Source: Psammoneis japonica (Eukaryota). Taken from it: DNA of 31,213 nt. This document shows positions 140 through 30,460 of this stretch, in pieces (the first letter of the stretch is position 1; each line of letters starts with the position of its first letter). The notes under the pieces were generated by a model. It worked only from the letters and a program-made list of their open reading frames with translations. It did no database searches and was not told the DNA's origin. The translations under genes were made by a program, and so were the position numbers. Location of the stretch: positions 372,001 to 403,213 of the forward strand of contig QPGO01000057.1 of the NCBI GenBank assembly GCA_008632985.1. Reading direction: 5' to 3'.

Positions 140-1927
140 TTAACGCACAGTTCCAACTCCTCCTGGGAAGTCTCCCAAAGCCATAATACCCTTAGAAGTC
201 CTACGAGTTGGTGGGGCTCCAAATACATCCCAAAAACGCAATGTTTCATCCGCTGCAGCAGAGACGACACAGCCACCATCAGGGCTTGGCTCTGTGTGTA
301 GTACACGTGATGTATGGCCTTTAAACTCTTGAAGCTTGGTCATCGTTGGGTATTTCCAAAGTATCAGTTGGTTTTCACTGAAACCATGGGACGAGCACAG
401 CTCCTGCTGATGCCTCGACCACAAAAGAGAGCATACCTGAGATCCAGTATCGACCGAGTTCAGCATTGTACCATTGCTCGTGTTCCAGAACTTGATGCTC
501 CGGTCAGCTGTGCCGCCCCCGCTGGCAAGTAACCCGCGACGGAATGGACACCAAGCAAGCGCTTTCACGGCAGCCTTGTGCTGCGTAAGAAGAATCCGAG
601 GCGACACCTCGGAACTAGCAATACTGTGCCGAGCGCGACCTGACAAAGCGTCACGTCGTCCGGATATTACCGCGTCCCAGATACAAAGATAATTTTCGTT
701 GCCACCACTGGCTAGCATCGTCCCTTCATCATTCCACTTCAGGCCGCATACCTCTTGCGTGTGCCCTTGGTATGTAGAAACAGCATGACCGGCGGATCGG
801 ATGTCATGTTGAAGAATCAAAGAGTCTCTGCCTCCTGATGTAAGCCACTGGTTGTTCCACGCCAAACTGCTGACTCTATTGGAATGACCATCCAATGTTC
901 GCACCTCTCGAATGGCTTGAGCGTCCCACAATTGAACAGCACTCGAGTTTGTTCCGACGGCAATGTACTTGGATTGACCATGCATGGTTGCCCATGATAC
1001 ACTTGTGACATAATCATTCGCTCCCCGCAAGGTAACCAAATGTTGAATGTCGCCTGTACCTGCATTCCACAGATAGACGCACTGCCCAAGCGCTACAGCA
1101 AGAATATTGTCTTTACTCCAGCTTAGCAGATTAATGTAGAAATCATCAACCAAATCGGGTGCGTCAAGAATTCTTGTTGGGGCACTTGGAATCTTACGAC
1201 GAGTTTTGTTTGCGGCAGATTCTAATCCACAGTCCAACGGATCTGAGTCACTTGAGAAAGCATTCCCGCCCTTGCATGATTTCGATGCAGATCGCTGCAA
1301 GACTCGTAGCTGATCGTGACAGTACGGATCCGACACAAGAGATGACGAGCTTCCTTCTCCTATTGAAGTGAAAGAGCCACTGTGAGTATTTCTATCCGAA
1401 AACGAAAGCATACGTGTGTCATTCTCTTGGTTGCGTGATATTTCATCGACTGGGATATCGAGTAGCGCCCCTTTCATCCGACGTCGAAACTCAGCTTGGA
1501 GGGCTGTCTCTGGGTCTGTTTGAGTCGGCGAAGATGAATTATTTTCACCCGAAAGTATTGAGTAATTAGGATATCTCTGTCTTTCCAGTGAAGATATGAC
1601 GCTGGTTCGGCAAAGGTCCATGTTCATGAGAGATCTGTTCGGGATGAATCGATCTGCTGAGGATCGAACGGTTGGCGTTGATCGTTTCCGAGGAGTAATG
1701 CTGGTGATGGTAGGTGAATGATATATGTTTGGTGCTTTTCTTCTCTTCCTACAAGAAGGCGTGTGTGGATCCCGTCTCATGAGGTGCTGAGGGCTGCTCC
1801 CTCTGACGGTGCCCGATCGTGGAAGAGACCTCATTAAACATGAACTTTTTCCCTGGTGCGTACTACTCCTTGGAGGTGTTTGAAGAAGAGTCCTCTTCGA
1901 GTGGTTGCGTGTTGGTGTTTTCATCAT
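140..1927 (-). CDS. CDC20: APC/C activator CDC20 (Fizzy family WD40 protein), intronless
   Basis: C-box DRFIPNR, a Mad2-binding-like RMLSF, the hallmark RKIPSAPTRILDAPDLVDDFYINLLSWS, WD40 repeats (GHTQEVCGLKW, HKAAVKALAWCP, LASGGGTADRSIKFWN, GSQVCSLLWS, SAAADETLRFW) and a C-terminal VR (IR-tail variant). First in-frame ATG is at 1927; the ORF track's 1999 start is not an ATG. Confidence 0.95.
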   Translation of the reverse strand: MMKTPTRNHSKRTLLQTPPRSSTHQGKSSCLMRSLPRSGTVRGSSPQHLMRRDPHTPSCRKRRKAPNIYHSPTITSITPRKRSTPTVRSSADRFIPNRSLMNMDLCRTSVISSLERQRYPNYSILSGENNSSSPTQTDPETALQAEFRRRMKGALLDIPVDEISRNQENDTRMLSFSDRNTHSGSFTSIGEGSSSSLVSDPYCHDQLRVLQRSASKSCKGGNAFSSDSDPLDCGLESAANKTRRKIPSAPTRILDAPDLVDDFYINLLSWSKDNILAVALGQCVYLWNAGTGDIQHLVTLRGANDYVTSVSWATMHGQSKYIAVGTNSSAVQLWDAQAIREVRTLDGHSNRVSSLAWNNQWLTSGGRDSLILQHDIRSAGHAVSTYQGHTQEVCGLKWNDEGTMLASGGNENYLCIWDAVISGRRDALSGRARHSIASSEVSPRILLTQHKAAVKALAWCPFRRGLLASGGGTADRSIKFWNTSNGTMLNSVDTGSQVCSLLWSRHQQELCSSHGFSENQLILWKYPTMTKLQEFKGHTSRVLHTEPSPDGGCVVSAAADETLRFWDVFGAPPTRRTSKGIMALGDFPGGVGTVR

Positions 1928-2689
1928 GGCGGATTGATTTGAAAGGTTGATGGGACACCGGTAGGTATGTTGTGAGGGAAAAATGCTGCTCGCTGACAAA
2001 AAATGTGAGCGAGCGCCATAAAAAAAACGGAAAAGAAAACCACAGAATCTTATGTATGCAACTTTTTATACAATAATAATATTTATTAGAAAAAATGTAT
2101 GTGAATATTAAAATTCCTCAACGGACGTCTCTGTCACACGCTCACAAAATGGCGATTTGGAGATTTCACTCACTTCTCGTCGCCATTGTGAAAGTAATCG
2201 CCATCGCCTTCACTCCATTCTATCTGGCATACCATTATCCACACTCACTCCTATACAACATTACATGTGATATGCCCTACTTCAGATAGTATCTTGCAGT
2301 CGGTGTGGTCCTCCCACAGACGGTCCTGTTGTCTCAGTTCCATGCACTTCACTCGTTCTGTCTCTTGGGAGGTAGGGTGGCACAGTGATGCCGTCAGCAT
2401 AAGACTCAAGAATGATTTGCTACGATGTTGAAACTTTGTCAGATGGAGACAAGGTATTGAAGATCACCCGACGGCGACTGACAATCCCAAATTCTCAGAA
2501 AGGTGTCAAAGAATCAGGTGATGTTCTCTCTAGCTAGAGAACGATCTATCGATTTCAATGTATTGCCAGGAAAAACTCCGTTGTTCTCGAATGCTGGGAT
2601 AAAGTGTCACTACAAGTTCAGCTACCGACAGTAGTCTCCCAAGTTTTTATCCAGACGTGCGGCGTAACGAGGAAATGGTGTTGTGGTAT

Positions 2690-5590: not shown

Positions 5591-6558
5591 TATGGAAACC
5601 GTTCAGTCACTGGCCGGCCGACGCGGAATTTGTACGGGAATGACCGAAGCGTCAGCTGAGGTCATCGGAACCGGTCACGAAGCCGGCAGGCTGAGTACCG
5701 GTTCTCCCGTACAAATTCCACGGAGGCCGGAGCGGCCGAACCTGAGGGTGCGCTGAGGCGGAGGTCCCCGACGCCGAAGCGCACCCGAAGGTGAGGACGC
5801 GTCCACGTGACTGACCGGTTTCCATAGGAACCTATCAGTTAGAGGACTGACGCAACACAGAGACCAACAAAATACATTAATATGGATCTCTATTGAGTGA
5901 TCCTGGTGATGTATTTTTGTTGTGGGACCGCTGGAAGACGCCATGGTCGAAGGTGAGGCCTCTCGATCGCGGTGTCGTTTCGTGGGTTTGCTTTTTTATC
6001 TATATTATTAATACATATAGATGTATATTTATTTTAATTAGGCGGTTCCGTTTATATGTTTATTCATTTATATATGCTTTTTCACAGTCAGTATCGGTTT
6101 GTGGCATTCAAACACGATTGAACTCTGCGACGTCACATACCAGAGACCTACACAACATTGTCGTAGCCAGCATGTGCAGGAACCACCGTTGGGTCGAGAG
6201 CACTTTTTGAATTTCAATACCAGACAACATGTAGATTTCTACGAGCCAGAAATGACCCTCCAGTGCCATATCATGTGCATCGCTCACTCCGGGAACGCGA
6301 CGGCCGGTTCCCGGAACGCTGGTATATGCCTACGTGGCTCTACGTCGGGAATCGGCCGAATTTGTCAAAATCGCCTGCGCTGGTTCCGACGGTTGGAATG
6401 AGACAAAATTCAAATATTGGTTCCCAACCGTGTACCAAGTTCCCACGTAGCTTCTACACAACCGCCAAAATAGTCTCGGTCATAATGACTCGAGTTTCCA
6501 TACACAGTCTACACAGCGCTACGAAGAACAATGTCAGTCCGATAACTGATAGGTTCCT
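5591..6558 (+). other. Large branched fold-back element (structured ssDNA or RNA) with tandem G.A mismatches; function unknown
   Basis: Stems: 5591-5610/5807-5826 (19/20 bp), 5614-5639/5705-5730, hairpin ears 5640-5665 and 5668-5704, arm 5732-5800, and long-range stem 5826-5851/6533-6558. Eight internal mismatches are tandem GA/GA. Confidence refers to the pairing, not to a function. Confidence 0.85.
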
Positions 6559-6759
6559 GAAGTACACCCTGTCTACGCAGTGTCCCGTTTGTCCACAGGT
6601 GAAAAAAAAAAGATTCAAAGCAAAACGATGGAGAGTACAGTGTGGCTCGAGGACCGAAACAGACCTCGCCGACAGAGAGCTCACGACTGTTGCTTGCTTG
6701 TTGGCTGGCTGGTGCTGTTTCTGGCTAGAGCTACGGTGCTCTACCCTACAACTGTGAAG

Positions 6760-7500
6760 TGTGAGTTGAAAGGAATGCATTAGACTGGCATTTTGTTGGA
6801 AGCCTCACAATGGATCATTGCTCGATCAAACGGCCAAGGTCAGAGGCGGCCACGACAATGATGAAGTCAAATTGGTTGACAAGCATTTGTGGCAGCAGGA
6901 AATGCAAACAATGACAGGGTCAAACTGGCACTGCTGGACAGAAAAAAAGAGTTCAAGCTCATGACTGTGCTGTTTGTCACAAAGGGCTCGGTTCAATTCG
7001 GAGTTTCTTTTGCAAGGCGAGTCTCTTTTCCTCTTGTGTTGTCACATGTGCAACCAAAAAGGAGGGGTGCACCATTGTCATGCACCAAACAGTGCTTCGG
7101 CAGCTGAGTTGTGCAGTGTCTGGTGCAACAATTTCTTTTAGAAGGAGAGTTTTTCCTTGTTGTCAGATGTGTGTGACAAAAGGAGAGAAGCACCATGATT
7201 GTCATGCAAACAGTGGATCAGCCATCTGAGTTGTGTGGTGTCTGATGCAACAAAAGGCAAAAGAGACAGAAGCAGCCAAAACTCAAAAAAACATGCAGCA
7301 GGCACCTGAGTTAAAGCTCTTCCAAAAACAAGAGGCTGCACCACAAAACAAAACATTGCAAATCTGTGACCATTGGAAAAATTGGCTGCTGTCAAGCTGA
7401 GTGATGACTTTGGCAATGTCAGATTTGTGACCAAAAATGAGTTGGTGGCAAAACACAATTGTTCAGAATTTAAATGGTGGTGACCACATCAGTTGATTTT
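6760..7500. mobile_element. TpA-depleted, partly CpG-depleted degenerate repeat block 1
   Basis: Only a few TpA, in TTAG/TTAA contexts (6780, 7138, 7311, 7471); TG/CA-rich; flanks have normal composition. Confidence 0.6.
6825..7033 (+). mobile_element. Possible CryptonF-type tyrosine recombinase relic
   Basis: Reads DQTAKVRGGHDNDEVKLVDKHLWQQ...RARFNSEFLLQGESLFL. Reverting CAC/CAT to TAC/TAT and CAA to CGA gives GGYDNDEVKLVDKYLW...LRGESLF, resembling the recalled GY...YFW...LRGES catalytic-Arg region of Crypton/Ndc10-like YRs. Short and degenerate. Confidence 0.35.
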
Positions 7501-7592
7501 TGAAAAACCGTCACACCTGTGTGGAGTGTGCATCGCAGGTGTAAAAATTTCATTTCTTGTTCTTGTTGATCTTGGCGGGCGGGCGGGCGGCG

Positions 7593-9059: not shown

Positions 9060-9720
9060 TGCGCCGCCATGACATTGACCCTAATAGTCCAATTCGTGAG
9101 AGTGCCCTAGTGTTGATGACGCTTCGGGTTGTTATGGTCCCAGTTCGCCTGGATGGATTACAGTCACGGAACAGCGAATTTGACCGAATTATGATTTGAC
9201 GCGTGTTATGTTCAACAGAAGCAATATCGCCGAGAATATTTGTTTTGAAAATGAACTGGTGCAAGAGGGTGATTTGGTGCTGGTATTGGCTATTTTACTC
9301 TTCCGGCCCTGATCAAGGGCAAGGCATTTAGTGAGTGGAACACACATCTTGCGTTCGCCCTAAAGTACAACCTTCAACAAACGGTGAGGCGGATAGGGCA
9401 ACAGTACACGCAGGACATTGTCGACAACTCTCTCGACAGCATGAGGTGGTCGACAAGTTTGATCGAGTCAGTCTTGGACTACTCCCGAGCAGCGAGGGCG
9501 GCTGGAGAACAGCTGTCAGGGCCTTGTGTCATGACACCGGAGGTTGTCTTCATGTCCACGGGAATGTACGAGACTCTTGAAGTAGCTCAATGGCAGCAAT
9601 TGATGCATTGTTGTCTTGGTGCTCTAGTTGGGAAGGACACTGCCAATCCAAATCGAGATGAGAAGGAGCATCTTAGTGGATGCTCAGCAGCCACGACAAA
9701 GTCGGGATGGATATTCTTGT
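9060..9720 (+). pseudogene. TYW2: tRNA wybutosine-synthesizing protein 2 (TYW2/Trm12, Met10+-like SAM-dependent transferase) fragment, disrupted
   Basis: DIDPNSPIRES, PGWITVTEQ, DLTRVMF, AGIGYFTLPAL, EWN, LKYNL, DRVSLGLLPSSEGGW and LHVHGNV occur in the expected order, with an in-frame stop, frameshifts and short deletions around the SAM-binding motif. Confidence 0.8.
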
Positions 9721-12700
9721 GATTTTCACTGCACATCATCCTGTAGCATTCTGTGCCTTCCCTCCAAACTGCGCGTTTACTTTGAACAGCGCATTTCGTG
9801 GGGAGGCATTGCTCTTTCCTTACTGTACGTGCGACAGGCTTCTGTATAATGCTTTGTGGACGCCATACTTCTCGTCCTACTTTATTTATTTGAATGTGCT
9901 TACACTCGGCGGCGTCATGACCGCCTCCCTTATGTGTGTGTGTGGGGGGGGGGGTTCGAAACCGTTGGTGTTTTGCTTGCGGCATTTCGAGTCGCCAGAA
10001 ATCTGAAATGGACGTGAAAACTACAAGAAATACGAGGGAACAGCACAATATAAAAGGTATGTTCAACGCTGTCTAAATGCGTACAGCTTTCAAGTTGTGC
10101 GCCGGTCACTCATTTTCTTGCTAATCTAATAATGAGCTGCCACTTGTTTTGCAGGACCAGTTGCTGCTGTTAGCCGCGACTGCTGGAGAAGGCTGATTGC
10201 GCTAGGAACCTGGCTTCTTTCTTCCGTCTTGCTGCGAGTCGTCTGCGCCGTGGATCAGAAGAGTGCATTATTTGAGATTCCCACTGCGTAGCAGAAACCG
10301 CCATGCTTCGTTTTAGGGAAAGACTCTAGAGGCAACCAAGCAACTCTAGAAATCTAGTGTACTCGGTGGAATCAGAGCAAGAAGATCAAACATCAAGATC
10401 CCGATAGTGCTGCTGCTCAGCTACAGACGACAAGCTTTACAAGTTTCTACGCAGGTCAGAAGTTGCCACCAGCATCTCACACGCAACATCAGAATCCCCA
10501 TGTTACATATTCCCATCGATTGAGATCTTGATTCAGTGACAAAGTTGTCTCTTTCTAACGTCAAGTATCACACTTTGACTGACTGTTCTGATGTTGGCTC
10601 ATTTTCACCTTCGCTGTACCGGCGTGAGACAGCCGGTGCTTTCTCCGCTTTGTCAAGTGTCGCACTCATGGAAAGTCAAGAGGCAAGCCGATTTGACATA
10701 AGGCTGTTGAAAACGGTGTTTGAATGCTGTGGGTGTTCGACAATCTTCGTGTGACCCTTGGTGGAGAGCTCCACGTTTAAGTTGGCTCATGTGAGATGGT
10801 ACACATCATTGAGTTCGGAACTAAGCAAACCGTTCGCACCAGTATGATATTGCGCAAACAGAGAACACACGACGCTAGACAAACACCATTGCTGTGTCGT
10901 GATTGTTGTCTCAAGGGTCGATAGAACTAGTTCAATTTTTTTTTCAGGCGTTGTCATGCTGACGGCCAAAAAATCTCTCCAACTTAGCCCTACCTGTACT
11001 CTCTACCGTAGAGGACTTAGGCCCTGTGCCAGATAACTTGCTTCAAATCTAGAGTAGTACGCGGCCCTAATACCAGCGGGATAGCTATAGCACCAGTAGT
11101 ACTGGCTTTATAGCCCGAAGCTGTTTCCTGTTTGGGTTGGAGGCGGAAACTTGCTGGTGATGAATTTGATTGCTCGACTGACAGAGGACAGAAAAGAGCA
11201 TGCCGGGCGACAAACTGAATCAGGGTATAGATGCGCAACCGTCCGGTGCAATTCACACCAACGTGGCAGTGCACTTGACCAAACCGCCACTAGAGATCGT
11301 CGTCTTCGTATTCCAAACTTTATCGCTGTCCATCGTGTCATGAAACACTGACTCCTTTTTGCTTTGTCCCCCCTTCCCATTGCTGCTGTTGGCCATCATA
11401 ATGAGCCCCTTGTGTCTCTGGCCTCCTTCAACTCTTCCTTTGTTTTGCCACACTTGCACACACTTTTTGCAACTGTTCTCCAAAACCAGCAGGTTGGGTG
11501 CCTCATCGTTCTTGCAGCTGCCAACTTGTCCAAGCAACATCTTGATTTGAGCCAATGCTTCCACATCATCTTTCCCACTGCTGTTGGCAGGAACAAGAGT
11601 GGGGTGAAAGAGTTTTGGGATGGGATGTTGTCCCTCCCTCTGGCACTTCCTCCAGAGATTGCATCTTGGCATTGTTTTCTGCTTGTGTGTTTGTCTTCTC
11701 ATGATCTGTGTGCTCTGCACACTTGCAAAACACCAAGCAGCATGTGCCGGCAGCCTTCCAGCACCCCAATTGTTGCACACTCCATTTTGATGTGCAGTGC
11801 TTGTGGAAAGATTGTTTTTCAGTTCCCCATTGGCATTGTTTTTGTTTGCCATTGCACCTTGCCCTTTGACATTTCACAAATTTTTGCCCTCTTTTTTCTT
11901 GGGGCACGTTGAGTTTGGACAGTGCTGTCTTTGCAACCCTGCCACAAAGCACAAAGGCCTTGTCATTCAGAAACTTGCGCTGTCTGAACAGGACATTCTT
12001 GCAGCAATTCTGCAACACAATCTTGTCCCTGTTGTTTGTTTTGTCACTGTGTTGATTCTTTCTTGCTGGTGTGTCGCGCGCCCATTTTTGCGTGAAAATG
12101 AAAATTGCATGATGTGTTCATTGCAACAACTGCATGCACCACAAATGTTGTTTTCATGACCAAAGCTCAAACAAACAAGAAAAAGCAAAACAAAAACAGC
12201 CATGGCTTTCGTGGTGCATGACGGTCTCCTTTTTTCAATCTCACGGACAACTGGGGGGCATTGTGAGGACCTCAGCATTGGACACAGTCAACACACAAAC
12301 TGAGCATGATGAAAAAACAACTGCTGCAGTCTGCGACACACTTTTGCATTTAACTGCGTGGCAATGGCAGCTTTCAGAAGCAACTGCCAGCCTCATTTTG
12401 CTCCAGATTTAATGCCAAGAACAGCTTTTTTTTTTCTCTTGTCATGCAAATCATTTCCCAGCTGTGTGGGCTGGCACAAGACTTTCAGAGTGATTGACAT
12501 CAAGAAAGCAGCAGGAAAGAGTCCAGAATTGGTGCCGCTGCGGTGCTGGTGTTCTTCTTGATTTGTCTGTTGCACAATTTGTTGCTCAACAAAGATGTTG
12601 GTGAGGCTGTTGAATTGCAAGTGTCAAAATGTGTGCACAAAAAATGCCAGGCAATGATGCCAGATGACCTGGTTTGCACAAAAGAGTGTCCGGTGTCCGC

Positions 12701-15700
12701 ACATGTTGCACACAAGCACATCAATGTGAGCACACACTGCTCAAGGAAGTGATGAGCTCTTGTCTTGATCAGCAACAATGAGCCCAGATAATCTTCAGAA
12801 ACAACAACGTGGGTGCATGCACAAGACCTTTCTGCATGTGTCCATGTCTGAACATTTGAGTGTCAACACTTTTTTGCCAGAACAAATCTGAAAACATGGC
12901 CCATGACCAAATGAGAGCATGTTGGAGTTTGGCACTCACAACTGCCAATGTCAAAGGCAAGCTTTTTCCATGACTCAACAAGTCCACAGAAATGATTGAG
13001 AACCCTGTGAAAAGCCACAAAGAAGGAGCGAGAATGGCAAAAAGCCAAGCCTGCAACAGACCTGGTTGAGCAATGACAAGATGCAAGATGCTGTCTGTGA
13101 GAATGAAGTGCAGGCACAAAGCTCATGCCACAACTCCAGCAGCAAGTCTCTCACCTCTGTCAGGTGACAAGCCCAGCGGTGCTCTTCTTCCCGCTGTTCC
13201 ATGAAAAAGAAGAGCTGCAAAGATGTCTGCATGATTGCCAAATGGTGCTGCACTCCCCTTGTCATCAGATGGTGACTTCACAGAGGACAAGCATGCCAAG
13301 TTGAATGTGCAATCAAATCCCAATCAAGCAGCTGTCCAAGAGGTGCAACATTCCTGAATGCATTGCTGCTTGCCATCTGTGCAACCCATGATGTGACAAA
13401 TTGCCATGCAGCCTCTGTTGAGAAACACCACACAAGATGACACATCAGCATCAATTTTGGCCCTGCAGTGCCTGACACCCCACATGCCAACAACAATGCA
13501 ACCCACCAGTGTGGCAGCCAGGCATGTTGGGTGCCAGCCACATGTGCCACATCTTGGAGAGGGCCAACCAAATGGGTTCAGGAAATGGCATTGACAGGCG
13601 CGCAACTGCCAGGATTGCACCTGTGATTTGCAATGTTTTGTTCCAGACCAGCTTGTGCTGCAGTTCAAAAAAGCCCAGATGAAGCTTCCCCAGCTCTGTC
13701 ACATTTTGCCAAATCACAAGACAAGTCTGGCATAAATCCAACAGAGGTGCATCTTGTGTGAGCAACATCACAACAAAACAGAGAGGTGGGCATGAGAGGA
13801 AGAGTCAAATGCCGCCACCACACATTGCCAAATCCTTGACTTCCACTGTTTCTCAGCCCCGGCCATTGCACCTGTCACGTGGCACATGACAATTGCATCC
13901 GATGCACCTCAAATTCAAATCAAGCCAAAGGTGTGTGAATGAAAAAAGGCCAGATCTGTCCCAACTGTTGGAAGAGGAATCAAAGCTGGGGTCTTGACTC
14001 TCCCAGCAACTCCATTTGTTTGGCTCTCAACCTTCTTAAATGACATGAAGCAAAACAAAGATTTCCAACTTTTTGTTCTTGTCAATGAAACAAGCTTTGG
14101 CTGGGGACACATTGGTCTTTGTGCCTCTGATTTGCATCCCTTCATTCATTCTTTCACAATCCAAATGGCAATCTTGACTTTCCTGGTGACTCCTTGGTGG
14201 GCTTGGCTTTCAAGAAGTCAAAACAGAGATTTCCAACTTGGTCCCATGAATGGTCCTTGCAACCCATTGTTTGTTCTCTGTCAGCATTGCAGCTCTGGAC
14301 TCCTGGCTTGGATCAGGGCTGGCACTCAGTTGGATCAGGGCTGCTTGACACATTGTGCTGCTCACACCACTCACAACTGCACAACAGCGCATGACTCTTG
14401 AAACACATGGTGAAGGAAATTCAGACAATGCATTTGATGCATTTGAGTGGTCCCACAAGACATTTGACAAAGCAGCTGAGCTCCTCCTGGAAGAGCAGAG
14501 GGGCAACACATTTTTCATTTCAAATTTGGCAGTTGTGTTGCATCAATCGCTGCTTTCAGCAATGTGGAAAGAAACAATCATCAAGAGGTGCGCCACTGAC
14601 AGCTCATCCAATCTCATCTTTTGACCCCAAAAGGCCATGGAGATGTGGTGGGTTGGGTTGCCAAGAGCCTTTGCATGGAGTTGAAGATCCCTGGCATCAT
14701 TTTCCCAAAGCAACTCATCAGCTGCAGCAGCATTGGTGTGTGAGCCAACATGCTTTGAAGCCTCTGTCACTTTTTCAACATTGACATGAAATGTGGTGAC
14801 AAAAGTTTCTTTGCACTTGCTCATTGTGGCACAGTGATGCATGTGCAATTGGAAAAAAGCTTGGCTCATGCTTTGAACCAGTGATGGCTTGGCACTCACA
14901 TGAGGTGGGGGGACACTGCACATGACATTTCTGGATTTTGCATGTTGTCAGAAGCACGTGAACTCCCCATTTTAAGTTTGAGTTGCCATTTTGGAAAAGA
15001 GCAAGATTGTGGAGGTCCAGCGGCCAGAACAAATCTTTGAAGTGGGTTTGCATTGATGGACTTTAATCTTTTCAACTGGACTCACATTTTTTGTGCTTGG
15101 CTTCATCCCCTCCCAAACACTGAAGCTCCTGCTGCAGATGCCTGCACATCTGCTCTTACATTTGCACTTGATTTGTGTCAATTTTTTTTGTTTCTTTGAC
15201 CACCTTGGCAACAGTTTGTAATTTCGCCTTTTTGTTGCAATGGGTGGCTTTCCTCATGCCATCCACTGTGACCATCAGAGCCTCTGCTGCACTGCAGGTT
15301 TTCTTGCAGAGCCACAGAATGCCTGGCTTCTGTGGCCACATTTGCAAAGAGCCTTGGCAGCTGTCACCCGATGTTGTGCATCTGCTCACAGCCTTTTTTG
15401 GGTCATTGCAAGCACATGCCAGTGCCAAGATTTGGACCAAGGGAACAAACAAAGCTTTCACAGCTGCGCAAAATGAGACACAGCTGAGCACACTGTCTGG
15501 TGCACAAAGCATTTGAGGATCAGGGCAAGCTTTGCAGCAGGCTTGTTGGCATGGACTTTCCTGTTGTCTCCAACAGCCAAACAGCCCTTCAAGCAACCCA
15601 GGCCCTGGTGATGGTGCAACTTTGGAGGTGTGGCTGGACAATGCCAAATGTGCTGCAATGGTCAGGGGCCATCAAACAAATGTCTGGCCTTGTTGAACTG

Positions 15701-16740
15701 CTCAGACTTGTCTGCAGTGCCAGCATGCCATTCTGGCCCTCCAGAGCTGACCCATGCTTTTTTCTGGTGTGGATGCAGAGCACACTTTCTGCAAGCTCAA
15801 GCAGACCCTTCCATGCTGTTGTCTTGACACTCAAGGATCATCTGGCACAAGCAGCCATCAAAAAAGGCAGGTCTCCAAGAGCTTCTCTCTCATGCACACA
15901 CCCACTGCTGTCTCCAAAATGACCCACAAGGTTGGATCATCACCACGCACTTGAGGCATTGCTGCTGTGTGTCAACACCATGGAGGGGGTTGCACTTTCA
16001 CCTGGCCCTGGACACACTGCTGGGAGCTGGGCTTTTGTGTTTTTTGGTGCTTGGGGTGCTGCTGGAAGCAGGGCTTGCAGTGTGATGCATCACTTGGAGC
16101 TGGCCACTGTGCTTTCTTGGTGACAAAAGACAGTCAGAACCAGGCTTGATCTCCAGGCAGGCTGCAGCCAGGTGTCATTCTTGGAGCTGTGCTGGAGCCT
16201 TGCAGGTGCTGATGGGAGGAGCTGGGCTTGCACTTGGTTCATCACTTCTTGGCACATTGCTGGCAGCAGGACTCATGCTTGGCACATCTTGCTGCTCCTC
16301 AGTGGTGCTGCTGGGATGAAGCCACAGGTGGAAGGCAGCAAACATCAAATTGCCAGAGGCTCACTCACTGCTGTGCTCAATGCAGTGCACCTGCACATCA
16401 AAGTTGAAAGTCTGTCTGGTTGATCATTGATCACGTGGCACAGCAGGGCTGCCACATCCCACTGTTCCTGACAGCTGCTGTTGGCTCTAGCTAGACTCTA
16501 GAGAGACACTGCTTGGAGTGCATGGCTGAATTTTGTTTGCTGCTTTCTTGGTTGTGCACAACACATTCCCAAGGTGAAGTGATGCACCAGTCATTCACCC
16601 ACACTCACACAAGTGACCGCTCATTGTCCATGACTGTCATCTCTGCAAGCAGGCCAGACTTTACACACCATGAAAGTGGCAAACACTGTTTTTTGTTCTG
16701 CCACTCTGTTCTCTCACTGCTCTGCCAGCACCGCACAAAT

Positions 16741-16960
16741 TTTAGCTTGCACTGTCCTCTTGGCAAAAGCCAGGATGCTGTTGCACGTCTCTGCCTGGCA
16801 CTCCCAGAGAATGTTAAAAAAAACAAACAAATGTTGTGCACTTCCATGCTGTTTTCTCAAAACTCCAGCCCTGCACAGCTTCTCAGCTTGCACTGTCCTC
16901 TTGGCAAAATGCCATGATGCAATCATGTGTCTCAACTGGGCACTCCCATGGGAGAACATT
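16741..16960 (+). repeat. Diverged direct duplication (~75 bp, copies at ~16741 and ~16882)
   Basis: AGCTTGCACTGTCCTCTTGGCAAAA is shared; downstream differences are mostly TG/CA/CG swaps. Confidence 0.8.
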
Positions 16961-17938
16961 TTGACCTTTTGCTGGTTGTTGCAGTTGGCAATCTGGTGCT
17001 CCAGTTTCACAATCAGTGTGTTCTCTGTGCTGTTTGTCTTCTGCTCTGGATGGAACCAAGGTTTGTTGCTGAGCCAGATTGCACAGCTCATCCTGAAAGG
17101 ACCTGTGATTGCAGAACCTGGCATTGAGCATTGAACACTTGCATGGGCAGCCATGCATCTTTGGATGCCACGCCCATTGCCAAATTTAGCTGCCACTGGT
17201 TGCCACAAGGATCATCAAATGGAGGTGCATTTGAAAAGAATTCAATGGCCTGTTTTGATTCAAGCACATTGAACCCCCAATCACCCCATGGACTGGAACA
17301 CAAGAAATTGAAGTTGCGCCACAACTTCTCTTGAGCAATGTGTTCGTTCATGAGCTTCCATTCAGATGGCAATGTTGAGACAAGCTTTCTGACATTTTGT
17401 GGATTTTGACTTGCAATCAAAACACCAACAGGTGACAATCCACCCTGAGCCATTGCCACGACGCAACATCCAGAGTTGGTTTGTTGCAGCAATGACTTGC
17501 AGCCTTGAACATGTCCCAAAGGAAAAGACAGGCTCTTGGTGTCTGGATCCCATGAGTTGGCACACCAGACTCTGCCCCACACCCAGTCAGATCAGGAGCG
17601 CACATTTCATGTCCAGGCTCTTGCAACACAAGCTTGTCCCAAAATGGAGTGTGCCCCACATGCCAAAACCTTCTTTCATCATCAACTGGTCTTGAGTGGC
17701 AGTTCTCCATGAAAGAGGAGGTGGTGCTTGTGGGGCCCACCAACGTTGGAGTTGATGTTCGCTGCTGCAAAATTCCTTGCAACATGTTTTAGCATGGGGG
17801 CGAGGCGCTTGCCGTGCCGGTCGCCAGTTGAACATGATCAAAAATGTGCTCAACAGCAGCATCTCTTTGAGTTGTTTGGGATGCCTTTCCAAAAGCAAGC
17901 CCTGCCAGAGAGAGCAATGTGATGAAAAACACGAGCAA

Positions 17939-18024
17939 GCGGACCGGCTTCATTGCTGTTGTTTTTGAACTTGTGGTGGTTGCGGACCGGCTTCGTTGCC
18001 ATTGTTTTTGAACTTGTGGTGGTT
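17939..18024 (+). repeat. 43-bp tandem duplication
   Basis: GCGGACCGGCTTCATTGCTGTTGTTTTTGAACTTGTGGTGGTT followed by GCGGACCGGCTTCGTTGCCATTGTTTTTGAACTTGTGGTGGTT. Confidence 0.9.
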
Positions 18025-18330
18025 GCATCTCAAGTTCCAGCAGTGCACATTCTGTGTGCGATTCCACATGGCTCTTGAGGGGAACCCGGAATGTTGTTGT
18101 CAAAGAAGAAGTCTCTCTCTCGAACTCTGTGACATTTTCTCTGCAAATAATGTAGCAACATGCGCCGCAACTCCCAACTTTTGAGGCGAGGCGCATCAGG
18201 AAGAATCCACCATTGTCGTGTTGTGAAGCCGCGCTTGATCGCGCTAGGCCAAAAAACTCGCGGCGCGCGGCCGACGGGCCGACGGCAATGGCATCGCGCA
18301 AACAAAAAAAAAATCTCAAAAACAGTCAAG

Positions 18331-23027: not shown

Positions 23028-23923
23028 CAAGTGGTTGTTGCGGCACAAGGTTTGGTGCTTGGCAGACCGCTTAGCGTGAGTGTTGTGTATCACGCACTCT
23101 GAAGAGTATTGAAGCGGGGCCGTTGTGCACTGCAAGGATTACCACACTATAGCTGGAGTTGAATGCCATTACTGGTTGGCTAGAAAAGAATGCGCGGGGC
23201 AAACTAGGCTACTGTGAAAACCAGAGCTGACGTGACTGTCGCATGTGGACGTATCAAAAATCGAACGGAAAGAAATGAGCAGAGCAAACATATGCAACGA
23301 CATCGCAAGCGCTACGACCTCCCTCGTAGCATTGACGTACGTACGGAATGAATAACACACCAATAAAGACTGCTATGCTGTACTTTTAGAGTCTTTCTAA
23401 TCTTTTGGAATAGTTTCAAAGCATTCTTTGAAACACGCCAATATCAAAAGTTGATAGAAATCGGTCGCGTAGGATAGCATTGCCTCAAGAGCGCCATCAG
23501 AAGATGGAGCTCAAGCTTTTTCCTAGTTTCGGAGTGGAAATCCATCCAAAAAAAAAGAAAAAGGGGGGACGTACTACGGAGACGACAAGTAAACTTGCGA
23601 GTCAACCGCGTGCTAAATCAACACTCCCTACGAGTGAAGACTTACCGTACCACGTCACTGGTACGACGGAACCCCAAACCCCGCGTTCCGTCAACGGTAT
23701 GATCTGCTTGGCGAGCTTTTGCTGCCTCGCAGACGAACGCTGCTGTCTGTTTCAACAGCCGTGACCTGACAGGTCAAGCGAACAGGCAACTTCCTACGGT
23801 CAAAGACACAGGAGTAACATGGACTCCAGGCCGGAGACACGCATTCGATTTGCCCCGACCTCCGGACTTAACTGGCAACACCTACGCCGCCGATTGAGAC
23901 AACACGCCATCAAGCAAAATGAT

Positions 23924-24200
23924 TTGCGGAATACCAAACAAGAGCGAGCAATCTATTCCAGAGGAAGGGGGAGCCATCCTCGGCGATCGCGGCATTCGTT
24001 GCTTGGCAAACAACAAACACATCGTGCGAGACGACGAGTTGAAAAAAGAGAGACAACACTTCGTGCAAGCACAATGAGTTGTGGAACACCAAACAAGAGC
24101 TAGCTCTCTATTATCCGCAAGAAGGGCGAGCCATCCTGGGCGATCGCGGCAATCGTTGCTTGGCGAACAACAACACATCGTGCGAGACGACGAGTTGTGA
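23924..24200 (+). repeat. Tandem duplication, period ~155 bp
   Basis: TTGCGGAATACCAAACAAGAGC...GAGCCATCCT.GGCGATCGCGGCA.TCGTTGCTTGGC...CACATCGTGCGAGACGACGAGTTG at 23924 and 24079. Confidence 0.85.
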
Positions 24201-27079
24201 GCGAAAAACGAGCGCGAAAGAAAAAGCTGTGGAGAGATTTTGGTTTGTGTCGTGACCGTTGCAAATTTTCTCAATCACTATCATTTTTGTGTATCCAAGT
24301 AGAACAAGTACGATGATGTCGTATGTAGAACATTCGTTAGAATTTGGTACTTTCCAAACTATTACTAATTCTTACGTACGCTCTACGGTAACGGTCCAAA
24401 ACCTGCCGACGACGAGCTCCGCGGAATTTCGAAATTCTCCAGTGTCTTGCTGCCTGGCAAGGGTTGCTGGTGCAAGTGCTGTGCTGTGCCAAGTCTTGAA
24501 CAAACTGTTGGCACGCAAAGAGAGCCAGCTGCGCCAGCAGCAGAAGGAGTGCACAATTTTGCCAATGTGCTAGCTGAAAGCAGGACCATGGAAAACAATG
24601 TAAAACTTTCAGGAACTCAGTCATCCAATCCTTTTGTGTGAGACATGCTTTTCATTGTTGCTCCAGAGAGGCATGATTTGAGGGCCTGCTCCTGCCATGT
24701 TCATGGGAAGCCTGTGAAATTCTTGCTCCCAATGAATGCTCCCCATTCTCTTTTGTCCATGTTTCAACAACAGGCCTGACTTCTGAGAAGCAACACTTCC
24801 TGCGTGACTGCAATGCAAACCCAGAGTGGCGTGTGGTCCATCACTTCTCTTTCATCAATGTTGCCTCTCTGTTTTGGCAACTTGATGTCTGAAATGGCTG
24901 CAGCTTGCAGCAACCCTGAATTCTCAAGCTTGTGAAGCCACCAGAGCACTCAGCACCTGCTTGATCCCTGTGGCCACTCCTGGCACCACAACACATCATC
25001 GCTGGCCTGCTGCATTTTGACTTGGAAGCAACAGCACACTTCATCTTGCTGCTGTCCACACTCAAGCAGTCAAAGTCCCCACCACACCATGCACCACTCC
25101 AAGTGCAAATGCACTGAGAATCGACCACACATCAGAGGCCGCAACACAGTGGTGTTCACTTCCTTTGTCTTGTTTGCATCATTCAATGGTGTGTTGGCAT
25201 CTCTTTTGTTTTTGCACTTTGCATGCAAAGGTTGCAGTCATGTTTCAATTTGTTGTTGCCTTTTTGTGTGTGTTGTTGTCACCTTTTGTTTTGATTTAAT
25301 TTTGTCAATGCATCCCAATGTGTCTTGCATTTGAATTTGGCACATTTTCTTTTGATGACTTTGGTGCATGTGTTTTGAAACGTCATCTTTGACAGTTGTT
25401 TTCAACAGCTCCACCCCGTTCATGCACCACCACAGTGGCTGGCATTTCTTCTATGCCCAAGTTGTCCCAATGAGTGCTTGGCTCATCATTTTCACCTGCA
25501 CTCACCAGAATTTCAGTCCATGGCTCTCTGCCCGGTTTTTGGTGCATTTTCTACATGCGCAACATTCCACCCATTTTTCACGACAGCACATCCTCTCCAC
25601 AAAATGCATTTGACAAGAGCGTGCACTGTTGTGATTCTCATGTGCATTCTACGTGAATCAGCAACTGACTGTTGGCCATGGCTGTCAATGATGCTTGGCC
25701 ATTTTTTGCAGCTTTTGCAATTGTTGCAAGCACATTGCCACTCCAGTTGTCTGTGGCCACTTTGGCAAGGTGGCTTTCTTGCTTGGCAAGGAAGGCACTG
25801 GCTCTCAAGGTGATCCACTTGTGGTGGCTATGCACTGCACACAAACTGGGGCTGATTCTTCCTCCAGCTCAAGCCATGTGAGCACTCCTCATTTCCCTGA
25901 AGCACCCACACATCTCCTTGGTGTGCTGATGACTCAGAAGCAGCAGCAGGAAAATTTTCAAGCAATTCAGAAATTTTTTCTCACCCTGTGCAACATCAGA
26001 CCCAACCACAGCAGTTGCCATTCTGTTGACAACTCCAAGAACACTCCAGAGAGTTGTTCTTCCAGAGTGCATTCTGGGGCAGAAAAACAGACACATGGTG
26101 GCTTGCACCATGCTTGAAGAACAAGCACAAATGAAAGTGGAACAAGTGGAACAAATCACAGAAAGCACAAACCATGAGATCAAATTTTACACTGCAATTT
26201 TGGGATTTTCCAAAGGAGTTCTCAATGGCCTGAAGTGTTTGTGCTGCTCCTGCAGAGCAAAGGCCTTTCAGAGACCAATTCCCACGTGCACTTCACTGCA
26301 ACAGTGCAAAAGCGCCAGGCATCACTGACCACAAGGCATGACAATGACAAAGCCCCAGATTGTGATCATCACAGCAGTCAATGGGATGCACCGGCCTGTT
26401 GGGGTTGTTGCTTGTCAAAGAAAAATCAACAACAAGGGGGCACCTGTCATTTCTCTTTGAGCTGGGTGCCTTGATGGCTGCACCAGGTGCAGACGTGCCA
26501 ACAATGTTGGCAATGCTTGTTGGGGATTGAGCAATGCTGAAAGGAACTTTTCTGTTTCTGTCCAACCAGCCACCCACAATCATGCCAACAATGCTGACAA
26601 CTCATCTCCAACATGGCCACCCAGTCACTCCATGTCCTTCTTGCAGCACAAGTGGCCCAACAATGTGCTGTCGGCAAGTGCTCCTGAAGAGACTTTGTTG
26701 TCTCTTTTGGAGCAAGATTTGTGGAATGAAATGACAGCAAAGACTTGACAATTGAAGCGGACGGCCGCCACCCAAGCACATGTTTGATTGGCTGAAGGGC
26801 ACATGCAATGTCTGAAGGCACCTCTCAAGAAGGCACAATGATGTTGGGATGGTGGACCCAGACAAACCCTTTCAGTTTTCAGAAAAAGGCCAAACCACAG
26901 CATGCAGCACACACAATGCATGGAATTCTGCATCAACACTTTGCCATGTTGCAAATCAAAATCATGTGTTGAAAGCACAGTGAAAAATGTGAGGGGCAGA
27001 GAATGTCCACATGAGCTCTAGATTGTCAACATTGTGCCAAGAAAGAAATGACTGATGAGGACAATGAGCTCACATCAAA

Positions 27080-28130
27080 GGCCACCCACAAACTTCTCAA
27101 GTTTGTTGGAGCACAGCACAGAAAAGCTGTCAACAAAGACGGCCCTGCAAAGGACAGCCCCAAGGACAAAACAGCAGGCAAAACAGGATCTAACATCACG
27201 GATGGGAAAAGTGACTGAATCAGAAAAAGCTCCAGGAGCTGGGCATGCCAAAGAGTCCTCACAAATGGGCATGTGCTGTCATTGTGGAGATGACCAAACC
27301 TGGCACACAAAACCAGCTCCTGGCTCAAGGCAGGAGGCTGCATTTCAAACAACAAACACATGCTCAGCTTGAACTCTGCTCACATTCTTGCTTCAACTTG
27401 ACAAGAGAAAGGCCCTCAACTCATGCACAGGGCAATGCCTCTGAAAGTTTGCAATGTGGCGGGGATGATCAAGAGCACCAAGAAAGGCAGAGTGTGTGCC
27501 ACAGCACCCTCAGTGCCGTGATGTGCCACATGCACCTGACAGGCAATCAAAATGCAAAATGCACCGCAAAAGTGCTGTTGTGAAAATCATGAGCCACATC
27601 TGGTGGGGCAATGATCTGGGAATGTGTGTGCACACATGCTTGACATTCTTGTCCGTCATGCCAATTTTTTTTGTTTTCATTTTAAAAAATTCTGTCATGC
27701 AGTGTGAGATTTTTTCATGCTTTCCAACAACTTAAGGGCTGGCTGGAGATGATGTAAAGGAAATCAACAAGTGCACACCTCCAGGTCATCATCATCACAA
27801 AGAAAGAAACAACCAACAAAGATGATGAGGAGCCTGGCATCAATGGCTGCCCAGACTTCTCAAGTTTGTTGGAGATCTGCACAGAAGCCACCACCACTGA
27901 TGGCCCTGCAAAGGAGGGCCTCTGCCAGATGAAGTGGTGGGTGAAATGGGGTCTGATGTCAAGGATGGGAAAGTGGCTGAATCAGAAAAAAAAGCTCCAG
28001 CAGCCAGATGCCAAAGAGCCTTTGGAAGGGCATGCTCTGATTGTGGAGCTGGCTGAACCCAGTGCACAACTCAATTCCCAGCTCAACACAGGAGGCTGCA
28101 TTTCAAACAATGAACACTTGCTTGGCTTAA
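27080..28130 (+). repeat. Two diverged ~280-bp copies (~27085-27360 and ~27850-28120)
   Basis: Shared anchors in the same order: ACTTCTCAAGTTTGTTGGAG, GGCCCTGCAAAGGA, GGATGGGAAA, CTGAATCAGAAAAA, ATGCCAAAGAG, ATTGTGGAG and CAGGAGGCTGCATTTCAAACAA. Confidence 0.85.
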
Positions 28131-29899
28131 ATTCTGAGAGAAAGACCTTTGTCTTGTGCATGGCACAACATCTCCAAAAGTCCACCATGGCAGTGATTGA
28201 GGTCGCCAGGAGAAAAGGCAGGGCATGCCGTGACACCCTCAATTTGACCCAGGTCTTTGCACTTTGCACACCTCCTCAAAGTTGGCCTTGAGTGTTCCCA
28301 ACTTTCCAAGAAAGCCCCTTCTGCAAGTGAGCAACTGGGGTTCCATTGGCCCATTGGTGGAGCACCTCAAGCAAATGACGAACATGCAAGGCTCTGTCAT
28401 TGCCCCCAGCAGCTGAGATTGCTTGAGGGTGTTGTCACCTGCAGAGACTGACTGAGTGTCTTGTTGCCATCTGTCTGACCAGCAATGTCACCCAGCTCAA
28501 AAAAGTGTTCCAGCATTGTGGGCAATGATGCATCCCTGATGAAAAGAAGCAACACGACAGCCAAGAAAAATTGTGAGAGCAATGCCGCCGCCAGCATCAT
28601 CAGCCCTTTCTGTGCCAAAGTGTCTTTGAGTGAGGCCTGCTCCAGTGCTCCAGGTGATGTGCACAGGCTTGTTTCCTGCTGCTAGCCCATTTTTGCATTT
28701 GGTGCAACAAACTCCTTCAAAGTTGATTTTTTTCCAAATCGAAGGGTGGGTGTGCACAAAACATTTGTTTTTTGTGTGTTCTCACCTTTCGATCTTTGAA
28801 ATGATCAAATTTGAAGAAGTTCAATGTGCTGGGCTGCACAGAGAATTGAGCTCTTGCATGATGGATTGCCAATCACCTGGGGCCAGAACATGCTGTGTGC
28901 AAGGACAGAGGCTGGGCATTCTTTGTTCTCTTGTGTGTTGCGCAAATGAAGATTGTGTGCGCGGGGCTGAGGGATTTCAGCGCTTGTTGGTGATCTTGTT
29001 TGGAGCAGGGAAGCTGCAGTGTGAGCATTGCCCCCGCCTCTCTTGAAAGGGTTCCTCCACACCATCATCGATGTGCTTCCAAGCTCTCAATTCAAAGTGG
29101 TCAACGGATGTGGCATGGCCGCACCAGCTCATCATTGTGCCAGCCATTTGTGTGGTGCTCAACGTTTCCCCCTCCTCCTCGCTTTTGCATCGAGAGAACA
29201 TTTTTCGAGTGCACCAACACTCCCTGCCCAATCGACTGGATTGACAGATTGGCGATTGCGTGGGGGCGCATGCAGTCACCGCTTCCCCCGTCCTCGCTTT
29301 CGCATCGACAACAACAGTCGTCGAGCGCACCAACACACCCCGCCCAATGCAATTTCATTCAGCACATTCAACATGCGCAGCAGATGTTGATTGACCAGCG
29401 ATTGCGTGCGGGCGCATGACACACACGTCACACTGTGGAGGTAGACGGAAAGAACACAACCCTGGGGTGCAACTGCGTAGGGTCTAGCACTTCTTCTACA
29501 GGGTCACCAGGAAAGCACAGACACCGACTTCCGCTACATCAACCTGCAGCACCCTCCAAGATGCGCAGCTGCGAAGACAACCAAAAAAGAAAACGATCGC
29601 GACAATGGCCTCCCTTGCGTCGCTGACATCTGTGTCTATTTTTTGCCGCATTTTCCCGTTTCTTTTCGCAGCATTCGGAGCTTTTATGCAAGTGATGTGA
29701 TGGGCCAGTGGTGCTGGCGTTGAGTTCAATCCGTCGAGGCGGATTTGTCGCTGAAGGTGCAGTGCAGAAATTGTGAGAATGCAGCATCAACATGACGGAT
29801 TTTTGTGATGTGCTGTTGCATCTTTGGTGTTGTTTCTCACTTCTTGTCATTGTTTTGATGCATGTGCCACAAGGTGTCCACAGGGCTTGGGTTTTCATG

Positions 29900-30460
29900 G
29901 TGCTGACTTTCTCTTCGGAACTCATCGTTGAACAATCAAAATTGAGCTGCCACTGGAATTTATGGCAAAGAGTTGGCGGCGGTGACATCTCAACATCCCT
30001 TGGGCCGATTTTCGCGATTCTTGTTTCATTGCCAATGGAAATTGTACAAGGAATCCAAGAGGCTTGGTTTTGTTGTGCAAAATTCCATTCTGTGCAGATG
30101 GATTTGTTGGGTGCCGTGCGCACAGAAATGATGCTTCAATTGGAAGGGGCGCTCCAGCGATGTTGTGGATTGAACAAGGAAGAATGAAGCCCCAGACACG
30201 CACTGCATGTGACAAGAACATTGAATGTGAATGTTGAACATGGCACGGGGTTTTTTACGTCAGTTGATCGTGTCGGGTTGCCTTGATTTGACAGAACATT
30301 CCACGGCACCAACCGGTTTGACACGCAGCTGGAAATCGGCTTCCTCCAGTGTTCCAACCAATTTGACCTTGCTTGCATGGGCAAGCTGTTGTCGCCTGGT
30401 TCGGGCATTCCATGCGCCTTTAGACCCATCCACCACGACATCGTTGGGGGTTGTTTGAAT
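29900..30460 (-). mobile_element. Degenerate stramenopile CryptonS-like tyrosine-recombinase transposon ORF (N-terminal region)
   Basis: WMGLKAHGMPEPGDNSLPMQARSNWLEHWRKPISSCVSNRLVPWNVLSNQGNPTRSTDVK (30256-30435) matches the recalled pattern W..LKAYG.P.P...P...RS.SL.Y.KKAIS.YMPNR...W......GNPTRS..VN; frameshifted downstream. Confidence 0.55.

Follow-up and report, generated by a model that had tools for sequence, protein, structure and literature searches.

In the diatom Psammoneis japonica, TpA sites in repeats and dead gene copies are converted to TpG or CpA after insertion. The conversion is fastest at TAC and TAT, and a DNA adenine deaminase targeted to this DNA is probably responsible. 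The evidence comes from the classes of TpA that survive, from alignments of decayed copies with their intact counterparts, and from a context model fitted to one family of Copia retrotransposons.

TpA-stripped blocks in the window

The window, that is the whole stretch of 31,213 bases that was analysed, is eukaryotic and gene-bearing; the genome (G000) measures 91 Mb, and the window forms part of its contig C58. Using a two-state segmentation on dinucleotides, we called four depleted blocks with a total length of 12,617 bases (Table 1). The observed/expected ratios in these blocks were 0.04 for TpA, 0.17 for CpG and 1.85 for CpA/TpG, compared with 0.60, 1.0 and 1.21 outside, and the block edges are sharp. 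The repeats in the blocks are multicopy, with at least 48 and at least 54 matches. For replication we used 20 stretches, each 10 kb long and chosen by round coordinates on contigs C1-C11, in which depleted DNA occupied 60,824 of 200,000 bases (about 30%). The process is confined to silent or foreign-type DNA: Copia elements and dead gene copies are mutated, and the parent copies and the Cdc20 gene are spared.

Two decayed copies of host genes lie in the window. The CDP-alcohol phosphatidyltransferase copy has kept none of its 30 aligned TpA, 29 of which are now TG or CA, and the alpha/beta-hydrolase copy, aligned over L192:1-1290, has kept 2 of 32 (one YTAR and one RTAR); the intact versions of both genes have normal TpA. 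On a per-strand count, TAC was changed in 15/22 and 14/19 cases in the two copies, respectively, and TAA in 1/9 and 1/12.

Three other parts of the window (9250-11250, 23250-24400 and 6250-6750) are TA-normal, yet copies of them exist at other loci. Repetition alone may therefore be an insufficient trigger, unless these TA-normal repeated stretches represent allelic contigs.

Table 1. Coordinates of features in the window
Feature	Positions	Strand	Remarks
Cdc20/Fizzy gene	140..2065	-	control: TpA normal, DNA spared
Small depleted block	6857..7532	.	3 TpA left, YTAR 3/3
Depleted block (TpA/CpG): repeats and dead host-gene copies	11337..18059	.	18 TpA left
Decayed copy of intact host CDP-alcohol phosphatidyltransferase gene	12893..13657	-	intact: G000:C21, L024/L191
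Three surviving TpA, all CTAG	16484..16503	.	TpA at 16488, 16492, 16499
Decayed copy of open alpha/beta-hydrolase frame	16880..17644 (start approximate)	-	G000:C494, L192:3-1031
Depleted block (TpA/CpG) with multicopy repeats	24440..29162	.	15 TpA left
Small depleted block	29751..30245	.	2 TpA left: TTAT, GTAC

Classes of surviving TpA sites

A preliminary description of this DNA had held that the surviving TpA are mostly YTAR and had read from them a TAY target. In the window blocks, the 38 survivors comprise 23 YTAR, 8 YTAY, 6 RTAR and 1 RTAY, compared with 121, 202, 189 and 258, respectively, among the 770 TpA outside (YTAR 23/38 versus 121/770, Fisher p 1.8e-9). Since the segmentation ignores the bases flanking TA, these class counts are not circular. 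Nor are the survivor classes proportional to base composition, from which a YTAR share of 0.25 is expected in the blocks (p 3.7e-6). The word 'mostly' stands for 61%, with 15 of the 38 survivors in other classes; the 14 individual sites listed as YTAR all belong to that class (9 TTAA, 2 TTAG and 3 CTAG, with coordinates off by 1-2 bases), and the two listed exceptions are correct.

The same excess was found in the 20 stretches, where YTAR accounted for 101/177 survivors inside depleted DNA and 901/5046 TpA outside (p 5e-30), and RTAY for 1/177 and 1470/5046. Survival relative to background density in these stretches was 0.45 for TTAA, 0.26 for TTAG/CTAA and 0.08 for CTAG, the last being the mean for all TA. 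The refuge word is TTAA. We rejected CTAG as a specially protected word, its survival being merely average, and likewise palindromy as the cause, since ATAT and GTAC are palindromic and yet together contribute only 1 of 215 survivors.

The CTAG triple to which the preliminary description had drawn attention, with the sequence GCTCTAGCTAGACTCTAGAG, is real but is a poor example of the rule, TTAA being the refuge. Nowhere else in 73,441 depleted bases do three TA fall within 15 bases of each other, and the triple lies inside two short palindromes, TCTAGCTAGA and CTCTAGAG. Each of its TpA has a protective outer flank, namely a T two before and/or an A two after. A 1750-base contig of run X1, which may share its origin with the window's source, covers 16141-17889 without a listed difference inside. 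X1 contigs differ from the window almost exclusively off TA, a comparison that has no bearing on current activity. On G000:C494 the homologue of the triple region is shorter by about 6 bases and its alignment is ambiguous: in the BLAST alignment two of the TA stand opposite CA and TG products, and MAFFT has a gap there instead. The cluster consists partly of survivors with favourable outer flanks and possibly partly of a short local duplication.

Direction, spectrum and timing of the changes

Survivors alone cannot give the direction of change, which we obtained by comparing decayed with intact copies. Copia family A provides a graded series of copies with identities from 99% down to 79%. The reference was one TA-normal natural copy, and a position was kept if 9 or more of the 11 young copies shared it. 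In copy L171, 104 of 139 TpA were changed (52 to TG and 52 to CA), together with 4 of 172 CpG and 0.34% of other sites. For six partly mutated copies, A>G changes affected 631/2231 sites in TA, 24/3585 in AA, 19/4091 in CA and 13/4110 in GA; the total outside TA was 56/11,786, and the restriction to TA is approximately 50-fold. In the same copies TAG was changed less often than TAC (88/402 and 291/703, respectively), AAG was changed in 0/1139 cases, C>T at CpG occurred at 75/3126 sites, and transversions at 12/27,704.

Sites with conflicting contexts on the two strands reveal the preference directly. In partly mutated Copia copies, YTAY was converted to TG 173 times and to CA 69 times, and RTAR to CA 29 times and to TG 9 times; the second Copia family gave a TG:CA ratio of 15:6 for YTAY and a CA:TG ratio of 17:3 for RTAR. 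The trinucleotide signature of aligned repeat copies thus agrees with the earlier proposal that TAY to TGY (equivalently RTA to RCA) is favoured. TG and CA products numbered 899 and 840. In family A there was a mild strand bias, A>G on the antisense strand being 1.2 times commoner (1.08-1.46).

Only 2 of 14 LTR pairs were identical, and the other 12 differed, mostly at TA, in either LTR; in one example the two LTRs have 6 and 19 TA, and 13 of their 17 differences fall at TA. LTR pairs that are unlike mainly at TA indicate that the copies are mutated once they are inserted in the chromosome, and not during reverse transcription. Hypermutation during reverse transcription, of the APOBEC3/ADAR type, strikes a single strand and leaves identical changes in both LTRs. 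We rejected it on the mutation of both strands, on the 12 unlike LTR pairs and on the mutated gene copies, which are not retroelements. TA loss is far ahead of CpG loss, the latter being a slower, later and separate process, likely 5mC decay. New TA arise at 0-10 per copy.

TA loss is patchy along the elements of family A (L153-L182), many copies being saturated at the 5' side, with an abrupt boundary beyond which the part near the 3' LTR is spared; this pattern suggests spreading domains. Some LTR pairs of the family show the reverse patchiness. Several Copia families (L085-L113) are TA-stripped but CpG-rich, and their reading frames, the longest of about 2000 codons, stay open because TA loss deletes TAA and TAG stops. 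One Copia element contains a 327-base element with inverted ends of about 44 bases (L084:1078-1404), present in dozens of copies at 93-98% identity; nearly all TpA are intact in 14 copies of this MITE family, which is uninformative.

Sequence context of the mutated sites

We fitted a competing-risk model, in which a site is lost once either strand mutates and the dose is free for each copy and 600-base bin, to 19 of 27 copies of one Copia family (181 sites and 3147 observations), with a bootstrap over sites. L169 and L172 have an identical direction at 45/45 shared mutated sites, and their tract was duplicated after mutation (by duplication or conversion, or as an allelic pair). L169 was for this reason left out of the fits, as were seven copies with fewer than 8 changes. 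Apart from L169/L172 the copies are largely independent, with a median shared direction of 0.58 over 148 pairs. Relative to TAA, the per-strand rates were 1.79 for TAG (1.36-2.32), 3.6 for TAT (3.0-4.6) and 4.13 for TAC (3.4-5.5). The +1 base improved the log-likelihood by 158 units, compared with 41 for the base 5' of T alone, and from this gain in the competing-risk fit we conclude that the rule is TAY to TGY and not RTA to RTG. TAY is therefore the favoured target, as proposed (TAC 4.1, TAT 3.6), but not a required one: a binary rule was rejected, as mutation reaches TAR sites too, at a rate 2-4 times lower. The surviving YTAR sites are slow on both strands.

An independent set, comprising the second Copia family and the two gene copies of the window (391 events at 281 sites), repeated this order. 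Changes were found in 136/272 TAC, 156/311 TAT, 59/239 TAG and 40/188 TAA, with directional rates of 3.35 for C, 2.33 for T and 1.27 for G. There was also a faint A>G leak outside TA, at 64/945 VAY versus 20/1028 VAR sites (p 8e-8); control copies with little TA loss lean to VAY too (14 versus 8 sites).

The outer flank weighs about as much as +1 for survival. An A at +2, or a T two before the TA, protects 2-3-fold, and A occupies +2 in 57% of the strand readings of survivors (window and 20 stretches) versus 27% in normal DNA. In the independent set, TpA was kept at 37/263, 59/207 and 18/35 sites with 0, 1 and 2 protective flanks, respectively. Positions +3 and +4 brought only small gains. When the family A rates were applied to the survivors of the window and the 20 stretches, G fell from 293 for a flat model to 50 with +1 only and 27 with the 6-mer model, whose misfit lies in TTAA (56 seen versus 39 expected) and GTAC (1 seen versus 9 expected).

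The two flanks differ in their relation to the strand. In family A the +1 effect is strand-own (own/opposite 4.7, 1.7 and 2.7), whereas the +2 base shifts the rate 1.7-2.7-fold alike on both strands: the own/opposite effects were 1.0, 0.99 and 0.96 (intervals 0.71-1.25), and three symmetric parameters fit like six free ones (LR 1.3). In the independent set, which is more diverged than family A and was used without outgroup masking, this neutrality was only partial (LR 14.2 on 3 df; +2T 0.67, 0.44-0.97). We found no strand-coordinated runs of neighbouring changes (167/344, 353/670 and 280/572; p 0.36-0.65). With a +2 effect of equal size on both strands and no strand coordination among neighbouring changes, the data lean toward a duplex substrate with sites struck singly. 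TadA-derived editors need single-stranded DNA. The data lean against the single-strand prediction for a TadA/ADAT2-type enzyme, namely strand-own context and coordinated runs, given the +2 neutrality in family A, only partly seen in the independent set, and the lack of runs.

Proposed mechanism and alternative explanations

In the mechanism that we favour, silenced chromatin would recruit an enzyme to repeats and dead gene copies, and this deaminase would turn the A of TpA into inosine, read as G, acting on duplex DNA at single sites. The enzyme itself, the attack on A rather than T, and the role of silenced chromatin as recruiter are inferred from the mutation pattern, and the 'enzyme-like' specificity named in the preliminary description may be understood in the same sense. 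Adenine deamination is favoured by the clean spectrum and by the TAY optimum of TadA-derived editors, which are reported to be most efficient at TAY in the cited part of PMC10879117, and to mutate A in any context with broad 5' tolerance in that of PMC10085711. Counting against the deaminase are this tolerance, unlike the TA restriction in the diatom, the need of TadA editors for single-stranded DNA, the partial strand neutrality of +2 in the independent set, the misfit of the 6-mer model, the VAY lean of the control copies and the derivation of the rates from one family and 181 sites. So does the gene content, as the deaminases found in the genome (TadA, ADAT2, two A_deamin genes, and dCMP, guanine and RibD types) are all ordinary-looking. 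They include a TadA-like gene on C38, which carries an N-terminal leader, and an ADAT2-like gene on C26, and no deaminase stands out among them; where a label goes further than the Pfam name, as for these two, we take it to be a motif reading. It is conceivable, if doubtful, that this diatom lineage has a natural adenine deaminase acting at TAY on the double-stranded chromosomal DNA of silenced repeats. Such an enzyme would be a native counterpart of ABE and would parallel, for A, the duplex cytidine deaminases; Bigelowiella would either share it or have reached it by convergence.

The sequences would fit A or T as the attacked base equally and cannot tell them apart. A thymine-modifying enzyme could mark RTA in repeats by the 5-hydroxymethyl/5-formyluracil route of dinoflagellates, the modified T pairing with G to yield RCA; the outcome is formally identical to TAY to TGY, and the strand-neutral +2 effect agrees with an enzyme that acts on duplex DNA. 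We consider it unlikely, as near-saturation with almost no transversions demands a very clean miscoding lesion; a profile search of G000 for Tet_JBP (PF12851) was blank, with its positive control silent too. The duplex substrate would also agree with an ADAR-like deaminase whose target is the DNA strand in RNA:DNA hybrids formed where repeats are transcribed. Its candidate is the second ADAT1/ADAR-like A_deamin gene (G000:C79:344200-345900, L209), which has 248 relatives, the named ones from many diatoms, and no other Pfam domain in the three exons scanned. Both A_deamin genes carry HxE/PC/C motifs, and ADARs edit DNA in hybrids with a preference for 5' T, according to the cited part of PMC5389660. 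However, human ADAR on hybrids reaches 94% at TAG and 81% at AAG in the same source, whereas here TAG falls below TAY and AAG is untouched, and the two strands are mutated nearly equally. Even granting that a divergent diatom enzyme could depart from the human preference, this explanation is distinctly unlikely.

An error-prone polymerase of the pol eta type, making A>G changes at WA while filling repair patches begun at methylated CpG in silenced repeats, would account for the regional patches and for the loss of CpG from the same DNA, and its preference for A in WA motifs is described in the cited part of PMC2213188. The genome has 27 C5 DNA methylase matches, of which several are intact and several others contain stops; they cluster on C297, C10 and C301, an apparent expansion. 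Yet A>G in AA (24/3585 versus 631/2231 in TA) stays within a factor of two of CA or GA, transversions are nearly absent, TA loss outruns CpG loss by far, and the strand-coordinated runs were not found; we regard this polymerase as very unlikely. That composition, newly formed TA (through C>T at CA/TG or slippage) or assembly error, and not a mutator preference, produced the survivor classes is extremely improbable. The few new TA per copy and a possible short local duplication in the CTAG triple speak for it, but the xTGy/xCAy precursors show a flat class distribution (YR 0.23), survivors are also found in X1 contigs, and the polarised copies display the bias directly. With the polarised counts, such an artefact is refuted as the principal cause.

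Comparison with known systems

TpA hypermutation itself is barely known, from Bigelowiella, and what is new here is the quantified context fingerprint. Our search of the open-access literature yielded no description of a TpA process in diatoms, nor of the context of one. Among 80 Copia relatives from metagenomes, 79 had no 600-base window at a TpA o/e below 0.2 and one reached 0.19, with unbiased survivors; they tell little on the spread of the process, since the search favours intact copies.

In ascomycetes, RIP makes C>T transitions that create TpA, and it needs the RID methyltransferase and a sexual cycle. The diatom process resembles RIP (properties summarised in the cited part of Mettrop et al., bioRxiv 10.64898/2026.01.13.699255) as a transition hypermutation with a dinucleotide target limited to repeated chromosomal DNA, here multicopy blocks and LTR pairs, but it is opposite in direction, as it strips TpA and raises GC. 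The editors ABE7.10/8e also make A>G changes in DNA and have TAY as their best context, which is also the order in this diatom, but they are engineered, Cas- or polymerase-guided and of wider 5' tolerance, in contrast to the TA restriction of the diatom process. ADAR on DNA/RNA hybrids and pol eta share with the diatom the A>G change and the favoured 5' T; as far as their cited descriptions go, ADAR prefers TAG and edits AAG, and pol eta also strikes AA, and neither pattern is seen in the diatom.

The context rule, TAC~TAT > TAG > TAA with a protective A at +2 and AA untouched, provides a fingerprint for candidate enzymes; polymerase eta and ADAR of the classical kind fit it poorly. The rule points to a natural editor of adenine in DNA as a possibility, which would be relevant to genome defence and base-editing tools. 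Repeat dating and annotation are affected as well, since removal of TA deletes TAA/TAG stops and dead elements keep long open frames.

A close likeness is that to Bigelowiella natans, for which the cited part of the preprint by Mettrop et al. describes A>G/T>C hypermutation of integrated viral DNA at TpA only, accumulation lines in which the de novo rate exceeded the background about 1000-fold, and long-term TpA loss with CpA/TpG gain, with ADAT2 proposed as the enzyme (bioRxiv 10.64898/2026.01.13.699255). On that description, both algae restrict A>G/T>C to TpA, on both strands, in foreign or silent DNA. They belong to unrelated lineages, and the diatom process approaches saturation across retrotransposons and dead host-gene copies, at a rate inferred from copies where that of Bigelowiella was measured de novo. 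A flanking-base rule is measured in the diatom, whereas the Mettrop main text does not contain the words 'context', 'flanking' or 'trinucleotide', although its supplement may hold the context implicitly. The fingerprint can be compared with the Bigelowiella mutation list, which would indicate whether or not one mechanism operates in both algae.
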